From Gemmatimonadota bacterium (lineage in GTDB: Bacteria; JBHIER01; G020348925): DNA of 64,000 nucleotides. The position numbers and the translations under genes were made by a program. Shown one piece after another: positions 58,955-64,000 of this stretch. The notes under the pieces are model-generated. The model was given only the letters and a program-made list of their open reading frames with translations. It was not told the DNA's origin and did no database searches. How positions within the stretch are numbered: position 1 is the first letter of the stretch; each line of letters opens with the position of its first letter. The stretch spans positions 3,735,688 to 3,799,687 of the forward strand of contig CP070758.1 of the NCBI GenBank assembly GCA_020348925.1, read 5' to 3'.

Positions 58955-59594
58955 AGAGTGGAAACTTTATGTCATTACAGACCGTTGCCTGTCCAAAGGG
59001 CGGACGAATGAGGAAGTAGTCTGCGAAGCGATATCAGGCGGTGCTGATGTTATTCAGTTTCGCGACAAGGAAGCCTCCACAGCCGAGTTCTACAGGGAGG
59101 CCGTCATCTTGCGAAAGGTGACAAAAGCATCGGATGTCCCATTCATCATAAATGACAGAATTGATGTCGCTCGCGCTGTGGAGGCTGATGGCGTCCACCT
59201 GGGACAAGATGATCTCCCTGTATCAGTGGCTCGAGACATCTTGGGGCCGAATAAAATCGTTGGAATTTCGACCCATTCACTCGAACAGGCCCTGATCGCC
59301 TCCTTGAAGAGACCCGACTATATAAGCATCGGCCCCATCTACTCCACGAAAACGAAAAAGACGGGCCCTCCTGTCGGGGTGGACGTCATCCGTCAGATTA
59401 AAGAGAACATTTCTATCCCAATCGTGGCTATAGGAGGAATCACTTTGGAGACTGTGAGTGCGGTCTCCCAAAGTGGTGCCGACTGCATCGCCCTCATCTC
59501 CTCAGTGGTGAGCGCAGATGACATTGCGGGTACTGTTCGGAAGTTCGAGGCAAAAAGAAAAACATTCAGCACTGACGAGGAGGCGAAGATGTAG
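58941..59594 (+). CDS. thiE: Thiamine-phosphate synthase
   Basis: LYVITD, QFRDK, INDR.D, GVHLGQDD, STH, T.TK, AIGGI. Confidence 0.96.
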   Translation: MKRVEEWKLYVITDRCLSKGRTNEEVVCEAISGGADVIQFRDKEASTAEFYREAVILRKVTKASDVPFIINDRIDVARAVEADGVHLGQDDLPVSVARDILGPNKIVGISTHSLEQALIASLKRPDYISIGPIYSTKTKKTGPPVGVDVIRQIKENISIPIVAIGGITLETVSAVSQSGADCIALISSVVSADDIAGTVRKFEAKRKTFSTDEEAKM

Positions 59595-59715
59595 AAGAGA
59601 ACCTCGTTGAATTGAGCGTGTGATTTTTTTTGAAAGTGTCGCTTTCTCCCCCCCATTCTTTTACTCTTTTAATAACAAAATCTTAATTGAAACATGCCAT
59701 CATGTCGAAAGGAAG

Positions 59716-59757
59716 TGTCGAATTTTTTTAACACTCCATAGTGTCCCATTTGAGACA
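59716..59757 (+). promoter_or_regulatory. Candidate enhancer (UAS) sites for a sigma54 activator
   Basis: Imperfect palindromes TGTCGAATTTTTTTAACA (59716-59733) and TGTCCCATTTGAGACA (59742-59757), about 80-120 nt upstream of the -24 box. Confidence 0.45.
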
Positions 59758-59833
59758 GGATACACGTCAAAGAAACTTCGTATCCTTTTTACTTTTCTGG
59801 TCTTATATCCGATTACCATCATGACTCTCAAAA

Positions 59834-59849
59834 TGGCATACAATTTGCA
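59834..59849 (+). promoter_or_regulatory. sigma54 -24/-12 promoter
   Basis: TGGCATACAATTTGCA, with exact GG/GC spacing, 60 nt before the REC gene. Confidence 0.75.
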
Positions 59850-59909
59850 AAAAAAAGACACATCTCTAACACCGGACTGTTCTCTTGAATAAGACAAAGG
59901 GGGTGTACA

Positions 59910-60383
59910 ATGCCAGATCAACGCTTAAAAATTCTTGTGGTTGATGATGATGAAGGAGTAAGAGATTCTTTGAAAGTCATCTTAGAGGATGAGTACGATG
60001 TATGGGATGCCGATGGAGGCAAAAAGGCGCTGAACGTTTTCATGAGCATGAAGCCAAACCTCGTTTTTTTGGACCTGGTACTCCCGGACATGGGGGGGGT
60101 TGATGTCCTTGAGAAAATAAAGCGCCTTTGTCCGATGACACCGGTGGTTATTCTCACGGCGTACTCAAATATTAACAGTGCATTACATGCAATAGAGAGT
60201 GGAGCGAGCGATTATATTCCCAAGCCTTTCAGCGTTGAGGAAATTCAGGTGAGAACGGCCGAACTGTTGGGCAATGAGAAGAACAGACCTCTCGATTGCG
60301 AGAGTTTCCGTCAGAGGTGGTTAACGAGAAAGAAGGACATCAGGGAACGGTTTCTCACGACGGCTTTCGTACCCACCTCATAG
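59910..60383 (+). CDS. Single-domain response regulator (REC + short basic tail)
   Basis: ILVVDDD, LVFLD..LP, ILTA, DYIPKP; no recognisable output domain. Confidence 0.92.
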   Translation: MPDQRLKILVVDDDEGVRDSLKVILEDEYDVWDADGGKKALNVFMSMKPNLVFLDLVLPDMGGVDVLEKIKRLCPMTPVVILTAYSNINSALHAIESGASDYIPKPFSVEEIQVRTAELLGNEKNRPLDCESFRQRWLTRKKDIRERFLTTAFVPTS

Positions 60384-60422
60384 ACCGTTCATTGCACTCA
60401 TCGACGGAAAGGATCTGAAAAA

Positions 60423-61784
60423 GTGCGTATACTGTTTGTTGATCCGGCCCCACGCAGTGGGATTGTCGAACCGTATGAACATTTGGGTCTCGGTTATTTG
60501 TGCGCAGCATTGGGCGGAAAGGGGTACGAGGTTGATACGCTCAGTGTCCCTTTGCAGAATCTCTCCGCACACCGACTTGTGAGAGAGATCATGAAGACCG
60601 ACCCCCATATCCTCGGTTTTTCCGTGAAGGAGATCAACGCCCGGCGCACTTTTCGATTGATCCGAAAATTACAGAGCGCCGGATTAAATTGCCACATCAC
60701 ACTGGGAGGCCATTTCCCGACTTTCAACCATGCCCGGATTCTTCATGATTTTCCGGAGGTGGACTCCGTCGTTCGTGGAGAGGGAGAAGACACCATCGTA
60801 GAATTGATGAGGGCTTTGGCCGACGGCGGCTCCTTAGCAGGCATCCCCGGCCTTACGTACAGGGAGGGCAATAATATCAGGGAAAATCCTCCCCGGCCCT
60901 TGATCGAGGATTTGGATCGCCTTCCCTTTCCTTCGAGGAACATGACACCACGCGTCATTGATCAAGGCGGAGCCATCGGTCTGGTGGCCTCCCGGGGATG
61001 CTATGCCAACTGCTCCTTCTGCAGCATACGATCATTCTACGGCACCTCCTCAGGTCCCAAATGGCGAGCCCGGTCACCGAAACACGTTGTGGATGAAATT
61101 GAAATGCTTGCCTCCGCCTTCCCCGGGATCCCCTTCAAGTTTGCCGACGACCAATTCATCGGGCCCGGCGAGAGAGGAAAAACGTGGGCCCTCAACCTGG
61201 CTTCGGAAATAAGGAAGAGAAACCTTTCCGTCCAATTTATCGTATCCTGCCGCGTGGACGCCGTTGAGCAAGACCTGTTCGCTTCGTTGAAGGAGGCCGG
61301 TTTGAAAAAGGTCTTCATAGGCGTTGAATCGGGAACCCAGCAGGGATTGGACCGCTTCAACAAAAAGACCACCGTTGAACAGAACAAAAGAGCGCTGAAG
61401 ATCTTAGAAGCGGTCCGTGTCGCATACACTATAGCCTTCATCTTTTTCGACCCGTATTCGACCATGGAGGACGTGAAGGGAAATTTGGAGTTTCTGTCAG
61501 ATATCCGCCCCTACTGGCATGGCAAAAAGGGTATTCTCTCCATAGAACCGTCGATTACGGTCCATAAAGGAACCCCCATCGAACAACGATTGAGAAACGA
61601 CGGACAGTTGCTGGGTGATTATTTAGGTTACCGATACCGAATCAAGGATCGTCGCATCCAGTATGTCCGCTTCATAGTAGATTTTTTCATACGACGTGTG
61701 ATGCCTACCTATCACACGTTAAATCTCAGAGGGAAAACTATCAGAAACAGGGCACATGAGTTCTTTCATCACGTTGGCAACTAA
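60423..61784 (+). CDS. Cobalamin-binding radical SAM enzyme
   Basis: LGLGYL.A.L and GGHFPT B12 domain; SRGCYANCSFC (CxxxCxxC); GVESG. Confidence 0.93.
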   Translation: MRILFVDPAPRSGIVEPYEHLGLGYLCAALGGKGYEVDTLSVPLQNLSAHRLVREIMKTDPHILGFSVKEINARRTFRLIRKLQSAGLNCHITLGGHFPTFNHARILHDFPEVDSVVRGEGEDTIVELMRALADGGSLAGIPGLTYREGNNIRENPPRPLIEDLDRLPFPSRNMTPRVIDQGGAIGLVASRGCYANCSFCSIRSFYGTSSGPKWRARSPKHVVDEIEMLASAFPGIPFKFADDQFIGPGERGKTWALNLASEIRKRNLSVQFIVSCRVDAVEQDLFASLKEAGLKKVFIGVESGTQQGLDRFNKKTTVEQNKRALKILEAVRVAYTIAFIFFDPYSTMEDVKGNLEFLSDIRPYWHGKKGILSIEPSITVHKGTPIEQRLRNDGQLLGDYLGYRYRIKDRRIQYVRFIVDFFIRRVMPTYHTLNLRGKTIRNRAHEFFHHVGN

Positions 61785-61874
61785 TGGAAGAGACCGTTTA
61801 TAACCTAAGATCTTGAGGGAACATTTACCACAACTATTCAATATTTCATTCCACGAAGAAAGGAGGTGAAAGGA

Positions 61875-61967
61875 ATGAGAAAAATGTATCGTCTTATAAG
61901 TTTGGTTGCTTCGATTGTGTTCGCTCTGTGTACAATACAAAGATATCCCCCTCTCACTGCAGCATGA
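61875..61967 (+). CDS. Unannotated 30-aa peptide MRKMYRLISLVASIVFALCTIQRYPPLTAA (candidate precursor/signal peptide)
   Basis: AAAGGAGGTGAAAGGA-ATG strong RBS; directly after the rSAM gene and before a terminator. Confidence 0.7.
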   Translation: MRKMYRLISLVASIVFALCTIQRYPPLTAA

Positions 61968-62021
61968 TATCGGAGTAATTATGCCTACCAGATAAAGGCG
62001 TTTGGCTCTTAGTCGGAAACA

Positions 62022-62065
62022 TAAAAAAGAGGCACGATTGAGGAAAAAATGGTGCCTCTTTTTTA
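62022..62065 (+). terminator. Intrinsic (possibly bidirectional) terminator
   Basis: TAAAAAAGAGGCAC-N16-GTGCCTCTTTTTTA perfect 14-bp inverted repeat with U-tract. Confidence 0.75.
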
Positions 62066-62125
62066 ATGCCTTGCTATTTGAAAAATTTCATTGTATTATT
62101 TCTGGAGAAATGAAAGGTATGTTAC

Positions 62126-63682
62126 ATGTTCCATTTTCCAAAAATATGCATTATTGCTCTCTTCAGTTTCATTCTCCTGTGTTCCTGTTCCTCGAAAAGA
62201 AACCCTGTCGTTCTTCGTTTTGGTGTTTCAAGTGCTCCATCATCGTTGGATCCGGCAGAGACGGAGGACTTCGTGGCAAGCAAAATATTGGCCAATATGT
62301 TCGATACCTTGGTCAACTATGAGAGGGGTAAGTTTTTCAAGAGGTCAGCCTTAGCCGAATCACTCAGGGTAAATTCTGAAGGAACGATATGGACTTTCTA
62401 TCTGCGTCGGGGCATCACTTTTCACGACGGAACCTCTTTCAATGCTGAAGCCGTGAAAATATCCTTCGACAGGCAAATGAATCCGGAGACCGATTTCTAC
62501 CTCACTGAAAAAAATGTGTATGGAGGCTCGACCTTGAGTATGATCGAACGCATCGACATACTCGACGAGTTCACAGTCCGTTTTCAACTGCACTATCCAT
62601 ATGCTCCTTTTTACCATACGCTGGCCAATTGTTTCGGAGCCTCTATCATCAGCCCATCCGCTCTGAGAAAATTTGGCCCTGAATTCGGGAAACACCCCGT
62701 GGGGACAGGCCCTTTTCGCTTGGCCAGCTGGAAAGAGGGAAAATCGATCACCCTGGTGGCACATGAAACCTATTGGGGAGGTCCGCCAAAGATCGACAGA
62801 GTAGAATTTGTCATAGTCCCTCAATCCATTGACAGAGTGGAGAAGATGCTTGATGGTTCCTTAGACATCATTGAGGATGTCGGAGCGACTTTGATCGATA
62901 AGCTCTATCTAAAACAGGATGTCGAACTAATCTACAGTGAAGATCTCGGGGTGCATGTGCTTGGTTTCAACTGTCAACAAAAACCTTTCAACGATCCAAG
63001 AGTGCGGAAAGCCGTTGCTCTGGCTTTTGATAAAGAGAAATTTGTGCATACGATGCTTCGAGGAAAAGGTCTGGTCGCCTCCAGCCCCCTACCCCCAGCC
63101 CTGGGGACATTTTCTTCGCTATCAGAACAGTTGCCGTATGATCCTGTCGCCGCTCAAAAGCTTTTGGCCCAAGCAGGATATACTCGAGGGTTCTCTGTTG
63201 ACCTGTGGTGTTACTGCATATCGGAACGGGCAGGCGTCCTCCCCTTAGCAATCAAAAAAAATCTTAAAAAGATAGACATCCAGGTCAACATAAAGTATTA
63301 TGAAGATTGGGATGAGTATAATAGAGGCGTTATGAGAGGAGAAGCATCCCTCTTCGTAGACGGATGGAGAGGCAACATAGTAGATCCCGACGGCTTTCTG
63401 TACCCCATTTTCCATTCCCGGGCAAGGAAGAGCGGAGGGAATTTGTTCCATTACTCGAACGCGAGTTTCGATCAATTATTAGAGGAGGCGCGTCGCACAA
63501 TGAATGAACCCACGCGCATGATGCTCTATGATGAGGCACTAAGAATTATTGTTTCGGATTTACCCTGTCTCTTTATCAGTTTCAGTAAAGAGACCTTTGC
63601 CCTTCGAAGTTGTATCGAAGGATTCTCTGTGAATCCTTTGGGTATTGTTCGATTGAATAATGTTGAATACGTACCCCTCTAA
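62126..63682 (+). CDS. Family 5 (DppA/OppA-like) substrate-binding lipoprotein
   Basis: Lipobox LLCSC; SLDPA, F.LR.G..FHDGT.FNAEAVK.SF.R, PVGTGPF, D.RVRKA. Confidence 0.93.
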   Translation: MFHFPKICIIALFSFILLCSCSSKRNPVVLRFGVSSAPSSLDPAETEDFVASKILANMFDTLVNYERGKFFKRSALAESLRVNSEGTIWTFYLRRGITFHDGTSFNAEAVKISFDRQMNPETDFYLTEKNVYGGSTLSMIERIDILDEFTVRFQLHYPYAPFYHTLANCFGASIISPSALRKFGPEFGKHPVGTGPFRLASWKEGKSITLVAHETYWGGPPKIDRVEFVIVPQSIDRVEKMLDGSLDIIEDVGATLIDKLYLKQDVELIYSEDLGVHVLGFNCQQKPFNDPRVRKAVALAFDKEKFVHTMLRGKGLVASSPLPPALGTFSSLSEQLPYDPVAAQKLLAQAGYTRGFSVDLWCYCISERAGVLPLAIKKNLKKIDIQVNIKYYEDWDEYNRGVMRGEASLFVDGWRGNIVDPDGFLYPIFHSRARKSGGNLFHYSNASFDQLLEEARRTMNEPTRMMLYDEALRIIVSDLPCLFISFSKETFALRSCIEGFSVNPLGIVRLNNVEYVPL

Positions 63683-63759
63683 CCTGTATCAGAAGGTGAC
63701 GCTTTGCGAATACTCCAGGAGATTACTTTGTAAGCACGCTCTGTAATCATGCTCTATCG

Positions 63760-64000
63760 ATGAAACTGCGCATCAAATTTCTGTTGTCAATCTCTCTCCT
63801 TATTCTCATGGTGATCGGTGTTATCGTCATCGTGGTCAATCATCTCGAGGAGCGGTCAATTCTCGAGGACAGGGAGATCAGTGCTTTCGATCTTGTCTAT
63901 GTCCTGGCTCACAGTAGTGTCCAAGCCATTGTGGCCGATGATTATTTGGTTCTGCAGGAAATTCTTGATAGCGTTCACAGCAAAAAAGATATCATACAGG
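63760..64000 (+). CDS. Partial membrane sensor (probable HAMP histidine kinase) N-terminus
   Basis: MKLRIKFLLSISLLILMVIGVIVIVV TM helix, then periplasmic 'LA.SS..AI..DDY..LQ.I'; runs off the window, so the kinase core is not visible. Confidence 0.6.
   Translation, partial: MKLRIKFLLSISLLILMVIGVIVIVVNHLEERSILEDREISAFDLVYVLAHSSVQAIVADDYLVLQEILDSVHSKKDIIQ

Follow-up and report, generated by a model that had tools for sequence, protein, structure and literature searches.

A sigma-54 promoter-associated cassette of a B12-binding radical SAM enzyme, a candidate precursor peptide and a putative sensor system with a transporter-less binding protein in a Gemmatimonadota bacterium

The end of a 64,000-nt stretch of a Gemmatimonadota bacterium genome (GCA_020348925.1, contig CP070758.1; G000:C1:3735688-3799687, hereafter the window) carries a compact gene cassette, whose features in the window all lie on the + strand. 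The genome is a single contig of 5.04 Mb and 96.3% completeness. Because the last gene of the cassette present in the window is cut by the window end, its remainder and the genes that follow were read from the genome (locus L002). The complete order is a receiver-only (REC) protein, a B12-binding radical S-adenosylmethionine (SAM) enzyme, a small open reading frame (ORF), a family-5 solute-binding lipoprotein, a sensor histidine kinase, an NtrC-type activator and a REC-AraC regulator (Table 1). The cassette is best explained as a self-contained signalling unit, in which a sensor block (lipoprotein, kinase and activator) stands directly after an operon with a sigma-54 promoter (REC, enzyme and peptide). 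A preliminary description of the window had pointed to palindromes resembling upstream activator sites (UAS), a sigma-54 promoter, a REC-only gene, a radical SAM gene, a 30-aa ORF with a strong ribosome-binding site (RBS), a terminator, a lipoprotein without adjacent permease or ATPase and the N-terminus of a membrane sensor, and all of them were recovered. When the sequence was read past position 64000, the membrane sensor proved to be a full sCache-HAMP-PAS histidine kinase, and the NtrC-type regulator that had been sought there follows its gene directly.

Table 1. Features of the cassette (positions refer to the window; those preceded by L002 lie in the genomic locus that continues beyond it)
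Feature	Position	Strand	Evidence or remark
Upstream activator region	59635-59757	+	18-bp site, shorter dyad, extra half-sites
Extra TGTCG half-sites	59637 and 59703	+	Repeat search
UAS-like 18-bp site TGTCGAATTTTTTTAACA	59716-59733	+	About 118-120 nt upstream of the -24 box
Shorter dyad TGTCCCATTTGAGACA	59742-59757	+	At -94
Sigma-54 (-24/-12) promoter TGGCATACAATTTGCA	59834-59849	+	Sole TGGCAY-N5-TTGCW match in the 64-kb window
REC-only protein, 157 aa, first gene of the sigma-54 operon	59910-60383	+	Pfam Response_reg E 2e-27
B12-binding radical SAM enzyme (class B type), 453 aa	60423-61784	+	Pfam B12-binding 6e-17, Radical_SAM 3e-16
Small ORF, 30 aa, candidate precursor peptide	61875-61967	+	AGGAGG 10 nt before the ATG
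Intrinsic-terminator-like hairpin and T-run, end of the REC-radical SAM-peptide operon	62020-62068	+	-23.3 kcal/mol, z -5.8
Sigma-70-like promoter candidate TTGCTA-17-TATTAT, before the binding-protein gene	62071-62099	+	Consensus scan, 9/12 matches; weak
Family-5 solute-binding lipoprotein (Dpp/Opp-like fold), lipobox Cys	62126-63682	+	SBP_bac_5 E 2.6e-88
Sensor histidine kinase, 616 aa	63760 to window-equivalent 65610 (L002:4448-6298)	+	Transmembrane segment, sCache_3_2, transmembrane segment, HAMP, PAS, HisKA, HATPase
NtrC-type activator, 461 aa	L002:6416-7801 (outside window)	+	Response_reg 7.6e-31, Sigma54_activat 5.9e-68, HTH_8 1.8e-11
Two further UAS sites, between the activator and REC-AraC genes	L002:8118-8135 and L002:8195-8212 (outside window)		Strict motif
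REC-AraC regulator, gene after the activator	L002:8392-9138 (outside window)		

The promoter upstream of the REC gene has the -24 GG and -12 GC dinucleotides at the correct 10-nt spacing. Only 0.07 matches to TGGCAY-N5-TTGCW are expected in the window, and 7 of 100 shuffled sequences contained at least one. The genome carries rpoN (Sigma54_DBD search, 3.5e-60), and the cassette's activator contains the GAFTSA loop. At the other end of the operon, none of 200 shuffled sequences folded as stably as the hairpin, which a simple terminator scan had missed because its loop is long. An Rfam search of positions 59000-64000 returned a single sub-threshold chance match and no riboswitch. The REC protein ends in a basic C-terminal tail of about 35 aa.

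The three cysteines of the CxxxCxxC motif of the enzyme (C193, C197 and C200) were invariant across 28 homologues. When compared with curated NCBIfam models, the enzyme stayed under every cut-off: the best model was BchE (169 versus 481 bits), followed among others by ApyD (E 2.7e-37, 128.5 bits, cut-off 750) and rSAM_ocin_1 (77 bits, cut-off 282). HpnR was also among the best family matches, and the closest solved relative is OxsB. None of the cassette proteins reached an NCBIfam equivalog cut-off; the activator scored 473 versus 714 bits on AtoC and 369 versus 800 on LuxO, and the binding protein 222 bits on the DppA model, whose cut-off is 1005.

Close homologues of the enzyme occurred in just 2 of 41 sampled genomes, one of the same family (G001, 68% identity) and one distant (G016, 47%). 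In G001, a 2.8-kb contig holds the REC gene (66-67% identity to that of the window), the enzyme, the small ORF and the lipoprotein. In G016, a sigma-54 promoter, the enzyme, a 33-aa ORF with an RBS, a hairpin at a position matching that of the window, the lipoprotein, the kinase and the activator follow each other. We then gathered 80 loci from species genomes and 80 from metagenomes, which were scored by scripts, and built a FastTree tree of 122 distinct full-length enzyme homologues. The tree omits eight exact duplicates and the loci with a cut or broken enzyme gene, including L053 and L183, both of which carry the full set. Results showed that all 20 loci with a family-5 binding protein after the enzyme fall in a single clade of 24 enzyme rows (SH-like support 100). 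Where at least 1 kb of sequence was available downstream, the binding protein was present in 20 of 21 clade rows versus none of 72 rows outside the clade (98 outside rows in all). The remaining four clade rows comprise three on contigs that stop too soon and L117, in which a kinase comes directly next. A small ORF of 25-47 aa with an RBS lies right after the enzyme gene in all 23 clade rows with room for it, and wherever the sequence continues for 1 kb or more past the binding-protein gene (13 loci), a kinase follows it. Co-occurrence of a small ORF, a binding protein and a kinase at homologous enzymes was what the preliminary description had proposed to check. The activator gene, complete or cut by the contig end, comes next in 12 of those 13 loci, the exception being L031. 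According to the record titles, the clade loci belong to metagenome-assembled genomes (MAGs) of KSB1, Gemmatimonadota, Latescibacterota and Zixibacteria or are just labelled "bacterium". Judged by gene order and these labels, the block formed by enzyme, small ORF, lipoprotein, kinase and activator is conserved across several phyla.

The peptides encoded by the small ORFs share a common build, with a basic N-terminus, a hydrophobic or amphipathic middle and a short C-terminal tail; in the window peptide, a hydrophobic stretch is followed by a short polar tail with Arg and Pro. Clear similarity unites three groups, that is, 11 loci with 33-aa peptides (subclade A), seven loci with 28-aa peptides, and the window together with G001. 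The peptides of L027, L031, L034, L037 and L106 are more divergent and were assigned mainly by position, RBS and general build. In the tail, subclade A peptides have an Arg six residues from the end with small residues before it, and those of subclade B a Pro three to five residues from the end. No family model matched: Pfam and NCBIfam (24 peptides) gave none, and the ESM Atlas no usable match. Nucleotide variation was informative. The small ORFs of L113 and L115 differ at 3, 1 and 14 nucleotides in codon positions 1, 2 and 3, respectively (11 synonymous and 4 non-synonymous codons), and those of L112 and L116 by six synonymous codon changes and no non-synonymous one. By this substitution pattern, the small ORF is a coding gene under purifying selection at the amino-acid level. 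When ten within-group pairs were compared, differences fell on 29 of 70 positions in the seven C-terminal residues and on 63 of 242 in the rest of the peptide. An attenuator-leader reading of the small ORF was rejected because selection acts at the amino-acid level.

In seven loci the small ORF overlaps the 3' end of the enzyme gene. In L041, L111, L113, L115 and L117, the 28-aa ORF overlaps the final 64-94 nt of the enzyme gene in a different frame. The excess of changes at codon position 3 indicates that in overlapping loci the peptide frame, and not the enzyme tail, is under selection; since this pattern shows the peptide frame to be the constrained one, the 35-40-aa C-terminal extension of the enzyme in those loci is probably a by-product of the overlap. 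A different arrangement was seen in L106:679-2193 and L107:805-2319, where the radical SAM frame runs without a stop codon through the RBS into the small ORF. The resulting 504-aa enzyme-peptide protein, which retains the internal RBS and ATG, is identical in two separate metagenome contigs.

Promoter elements are shared as well. Canonical -24/-12 promoters (at most two mismatches, GG and GC fixed) lie 68-106 nt upstream of the enzyme gene in 13 related loci, against a background of 0.06 per kb per strand, and in L028, L037 and L107 a TGGCAC/T-N5-TTGTA box carries a -12 GT in place of GC. Upstream of the promoter, L027 and L028 each contain three copies of sites nearly identical to those of the window (TGTCGAATTTTTTCGACA), the half-site of this lineage being TGTCGAA-T-rich-CGACA. 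A search of the whole 5.04-Mb genome for TGTCR-W8-YRACA returned three occurrences, all within the cassette, and none in the reversed-genome control; as the pattern was written to fit these three sites, the result is that nothing else in the genome matches it. Two of the three lie between the activator and REC-AraC genes, and a weak GG-N10-GC candidate with four mismatches follows them at L002:8315-8330. In subclade A, the corresponding element is the palindrome TGCAC-N8-GTGCA, often a perfect 18-mer, present twice at about -95 and -200. In the 2.7-Mb genome of G016 this palindrome occurs only twice (the pattern read backwards, used as control, once): one copy precedes the enzyme gene, and the second, with TGGTACGCGGATTGCT after it, is found in the gap that separates the activator gene from a REC-only gene. 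This second UAS and promoter were present in all four subclade A loci that extend that far. The UAS motif is confined to the cassette in two genomes, that of the window and G016. Since in both lineages it precedes the enzyme-peptide operon and also a receiver-domain gene, each cassette appears to have two co-regulated outputs. L029, L053, L108 and L183 have, beyond the activator gene, a second sigma-54 promoter and behind it a REC-only protein whose tail resembles that of the window protein. The basic C-terminal tail is common to the window and subclade A proteins, while their REC domains are just 25-29% identical.

The lipoprotein is flanked by the peptide gene and the kinase gene, its neighbours in 20 loci, with no permease next to it, and its lipobox Cys falls in a column that is nearly invariant in 18 orthologues. 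The hallmark domains of Opp/Dpp ATPases and permeases are oligo_HPY and OppC_N. The genome gave no match to either of them, and the same searches were positive in 11 of 14 control genomes. Nine BPD_transp_1 matches are present in the genome, the nearest 1.6 Mb from the cassette. Because the genome lacks a match to these two importer hallmark domains, the binding protein is most likely a sensor without transporter partner, and we propose that it senses together with the kinase. A tblastn search that used four permeases of the genome as queries, negative in the cassette loci, was discarded as worthless because the same queries also found no permease beside 28 ordinary family-5 genes. The best matches of the binding protein outside its own family among 301 sampled genomes reached just 33-35% identity. 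The ligand-anchoring residues Arg355 and Asp408 of E. coli DppA offer a lead only: the Asp408 column holds Asn in the window protein and Asp in subclade A, and a gap makes the Arg355 column ambiguous. When the mature lipoprotein (residues 22-518) was co-folded with the full 30-aa peptide, unprocessed and unmodified, the score was 0.02 versus a mark of 0.32, a result that is neutral as to binding.

No part of the cassette evolves faster than the binding protein. Of 17 within-group pairs, 16 had a lower identity in this protein than in the enzyme; the window and G001, for which only 200 binding-protein residues were available, did not. Between L108 and L053, for instance, identities were 83% for the enzyme, 57% for the binding protein, 69% for the kinase and 81% for the activator; the enzyme and binding-protein values were 86% versus 64% for L113 and L115, and 81% versus 47% (partial binding protein) for L114 and L040. 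Compared with the window, binding proteins of subclade A show 23-27% identity and those of subclade B 31-39%; the enzyme stays at 41-48% in both. The two pairs with identical peptide tails showed the highest binding-protein to enzyme identity ratios (0.90 and 0.91) among pairs with complete binding proteins, the pairs being few and non-independent.

The genome contains three SBP_bac_5 genes, each directly before a kinase gene. The second belongs to a paralogous triad outside the window (L216, G000:C1:4404206-4415961) composed of a 562-aa binding protein, a 597-aa dCache kinase and a 470-aa NtrC-type activator that is 41% identical to that of the cassette. It is divergent from a sodium:solute symporter gene and near a 1305-aa M10 metalloprotease secreted by the type IX secretion system (T9SS); no canonical sigma-54 promoter was found in its intergenic region. 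From these neighbours, the triad looks like a peptide or nutrient sensor. The third gene, also outside the window (610 aa; L217, G000:C1:4483298-4491643), lies amid signalling genes for a REC-HTH_17 protein, an sCache-PAS kinase, a 988-aa GAF-PAS hybrid kinase and a REC-HD protein. Given both contexts, all three family-5 binding proteins of this genome sit with kinases.

That the cassette is a regulated unit of enzyme and peptide seems to us quite probable. A working model can be built on it. The ligand-loaded lipoprotein would switch the kinase, which would phosphorylate the activator; the activator would bind the TGTCGAA-T-rich-ACA sites and fire two promoters, one for REC, enzyme and peptide and the other for the REC-AraC regulator. 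We infer this path because NtrC-type systems and binding-protein-dependent kinases (AioXSR, LuxPQ and CBP-ChiS) are established, and the UAS sites are predicted targets of the cassette's own activator. The enzyme would then act on the peptide's variable C-terminal tail, for which C-methylation or some other radical reaction dependent on B12 is the likeliest chemistry, and the modified peptide, having reached the periplasm or the outside, would be the ligand of the lipoprotein, closing a positive feedback of the kind known from Gram-positive peptide pheromone cassettes. The induced REC proteins might relay or damp the signal. Both the modification of the tail by the enzyme and the role of the peptide as ligand are proposed by association of the genes only. 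With regard to the signalling loop put forward in the preliminary description, its architecture and regulatory logic held, including in distant lineages: the small ORF accompanies the homologous enzymes, the gene downstream is a kinase, and the binding protein shows no sign of belonging to an ordinary importer. The complete autoinduction loop is a more tentative proposal, which we place somewhat short of even odds. The fullest form of the proposal is an undescribed class of peptide quorum sensing in uncultured lineages, in which the lipoprotein would sense the peptide, the sCache kinase and sigma-54 activator would re-induce the operon and a second-tier receiver, and peptide tail and lipoprotein would co-diversify into pherotypes; we assign it a probability of about 0.37.

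Enzyme and signal pheromone cassettes are textbook in Gram-positive bacteria, and AgrBDCA of staphylococci brings together a processing enzyme, a pre-peptide, a kinase and a regulator. The present cassette resembles Agr and the ComQXPA peptide-pheromone cassette of Bacillus (PMC4008528) in having adjacent, same-strand genes for an enzyme, a short pre-peptide, a membrane kinase and a regulator that acts, here by prediction, on the promoter of the signal genes, and in that signal and receptor, here only proposed as such, are the variable parts. In the cassette, the enzyme, pre-peptide, kinase and regulator genes adjoin, and the predicted regulator sites precede the proposed signal operon. Unlike those systems, it has a B12-type radical SAM enzyme, an extra family-5 lipoprotein without transporter and an NtrC-type sigma-54 activator; its hosts are uncultured lineages with several proteins carrying T9SS sorting domains, and secretion and sensing of its peptide are putative.

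The LuxPQ pathway of Vibrio ends in LuxO, an NtrC-type sigma-54 activator. It is similar to the cassette in this respect and in that a non-transport periplasmic binding protein modulates a kinase (LuxP-LuxQ complex, PMC8050422). It differs in that autoinducer-2, rather than a peptide made on the ribosome, is the signal, LuxP lies outside family 5, a LuxU phosphorelay intervenes, and the Vibrio genes include none for signal synthesis in the same cassette. The three-component system AioXSR (PMC7565993 and PMC5908839) has the same order of binding protein, kinase and NtrC-type activator and controls a neighbouring target operon, and the sensor domain of AioS is sCache-like (PMC8050422). That system responds to arsenite, its AioX comes from a different family of binding proteins, and its output is an oxidase instead of an enzyme-peptide pair. 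In Vibrio cholerae an SBP_bac_5 protein, CBP, regulates the sensor kinase ChiS (PMC8050422). CBP, a sugar-binding protein, is encoded with a chitobiose ATP-binding cassette (ABC) transporter, ChiS combines kinase and regulator in one hybrid protein, and neither a sigma-54 step nor a peptide is involved.

Class B radical SAM enzymes from the pathways of RiPPs (peptides made on the ribosome and then modified), such as ApyD and the rSAM_ocin_1 family, share with the cassette enzyme the N-terminal B12-binding domain, the radical SAM core and an adjacent short precursor gene. The cassette enzyme reaches no cut-off of their models, and the RRE domain, protease and exporter are missing here. Quorum-regulated operons of radical-SAM-modified RiPPs are known in streptococci (review PMC9389541). 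There, the signal, SHP, and the RiPP are separate peptides. The cassette is not a member of the ComQXPA, Agr, LuxPQ-LuxO or AioXSR families: its enzyme comes from a different superfamily, and all curated models scored short of their cut-offs. The authors of the preliminary description had not recognised the architecture as a described system, and the literature searched contained no description of this gene combination; subscription journals largely, and supplements, were outside the search, so that a listing in a RiPP genome-mining atlas is possible.

Several observations weigh against the quorum-sensing proposal. The enzyme has no RRE or PqqD domain by Pfam, and neither an exporter nor a leader peptidase is found among the conserved neighbours of the cassette. 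The nearest outgroup enzymes (L043 and L048) sit amid housekeeping genes, so the wider enzyme family is not obviously peptide-modifying; Pfam searches of the neighbours of L043, L048 and L068 gave housekeeping genes or nothing, with no hint of the chemistry. Nine subclade B loci, seven of the 28-aa-peptide group plus L031 and L034, have no recognisable canonical sigma-54 promoter before the enzyme gene. The variability of the tail is only a tendency, since L035 and L110 differ at 10 of 26 leader versus 1 of 7 tail positions, and L033 and L183 at 7 of 26 versus 0 of 7. An N-terminal part resembling a Sec signal is limited to subclade A and the window-G001 pair and is absent from the 28-aa group, L027, L031 and L034. 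For this reason, a Sec signal plus propeptide of the Bacillus Phr type was dropped as a general export route. Finally, the speed of the binding protein is only suggestive, since faster evolution in the periplasm than in the cytoplasm is common among proteins, and the nutrient-sensor-like triad L216 implies that such triads need not sense a self-made signal.

These points lead to the main alternative, namely that lipoprotein, kinase and activator sense a foreign or environmental ligand (oligopeptides, cell-wall peptides or a small molecule) and that the peptide is the output or effector, for example an antimicrobial, membrane-active or cofactor-like product, rather than a signal. We regard it as possible, at well below even odds. 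The position of triad L216 beside a symporter and a secreted protease fits nutrient sensing, the conserved synteny, sigma-54 promoters and UAS sites are equally well explained by a sensor and its output, and radical SAM peptide operons that answer to quorum or two-component systems are already known. Against this, the cassette is devoid of the immunity, export and processing genes usual for bacteriocin-type clusters, the regulon defined by motif is restricted to the cassette in two genomes, and the binding protein diverges along with the peptide types while the enzyme stays at 41-48% identity.

A second alternative, which we consider unlikely, holds that the small ORF is not the substrate of the enzyme. 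Its product would be a small protein, membrane-bound or regulatory, with a feedback effect on the kinase or lipoprotein comparable to that of MgrB on PhoQ, and the enzyme would act on a lipid, a small molecule or another protein. Such a role would suit a peptide that is short, N-terminally basic and, in many members, hydrophobic; in addition, the best matches of the enzyme (BchE, HpnR and OxsB) act on non-peptides, and the outgroup enzymes have no peptide genes nearby. It sits poorly with the coupling of enzyme and ORF in 23 of 23 loci, with their overlap in seven and their in-frame fusion in L106 and L107. Moreover, the peptides of the 28-aa group are too little hydrophobic for a membrane helix, and P0076, a homologue of the enzyme at 41% identity, carries a fused PqqD-type peptide-recognition domain. 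That the small ORF is a regulatory leader (attenuator) of the sensor genes or a chance ORF, in a neighbourhood of enzyme and sensor without functional meaning, would agree with the strong terminator between the ORF and the binding-protein gene and with the lack of a family match, but is very improbable in view of the purifying amino-acid selection, the conserved length classes and RBS, the absence of the single-codon runs typical of attenuator leaders, the synteny kept in MAGs labelled with several phyla and the UAS motif that ties both cassette promoters together.

If the autoinduction loop proved true, the cassette would represent a small, transferable circuit, with six genes, two promoters and a regulon that extends no further than the cassette, a new class of substrates for B12-dependent radical SAM chemistry and a starting point for the study of cell-cell signalling in phyla that are known from little else than metagenomes. 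In the literature searched, no pheromone cassette is described whose enzyme is a radical SAM protein, whose co-receptor is a binding protein and whose regulator is a sigma-54 activator. Even on a more sober reading, the loci make up a new and clearly bounded family of enzyme-peptide pairs, comprising about 25 precursor sequences, and offer a clear case of Dpp-like binding proteins turned sensors, in a genome without matches to two Opp/Dpp hallmark domains.

Some variants of the cassette and its surroundings deserve mention. In ten subclade A loci (L023:916-8079 of G016, L032, L035, L036, L040, L053, L108, L110, L114 and L138) a conserved gene set precedes the cassette. It comprises a CHASE2-adenylate/guanylate cyclase of about 708 aa in 10 loci, an opposite-strand 294-aa lipoprotein in six and a 732-aa protein without Pfam match in five, and in G016 a FecR-domain protein as well. 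The cassette may be linked to cyclic-nucleotide signalling. On a KSB1 MAG contig (L039:31-3541), the C-terminal end of a radical SAM gene is followed by the binding protein and then by a second radical SAM gene of the same clade, an order that suggests tandem or rearranged cassettes. In L041:4162-7523, two tandem family-5 binding-protein genes, 38-39% identical to that of the window, come after the peptide gene and are followed by a 927-aa multi-PAS kinase.

Downstream of the REC-AraC gene of the window genome, L002:9364-10873 (window-equivalent 68676-70185) encodes a 371-aa PAS-HisKA protein without HATPase, and the 103-aa ORF after it covers the first two thirds only of a receiver domain; the pair may be a broken hybrid kinase. 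Further on, L002:11767-13287 (window-equivalent 71079-72599) encodes a class I/II aminotransferase (Aminotran_1_2, E 1.5e-50). With its twin-arginine-like N-terminus and C-terminal T9SS sorting domain (Por_Secre_tail, FlgD_ig), it is apparently a secreted pyridoxal phosphate enzyme.

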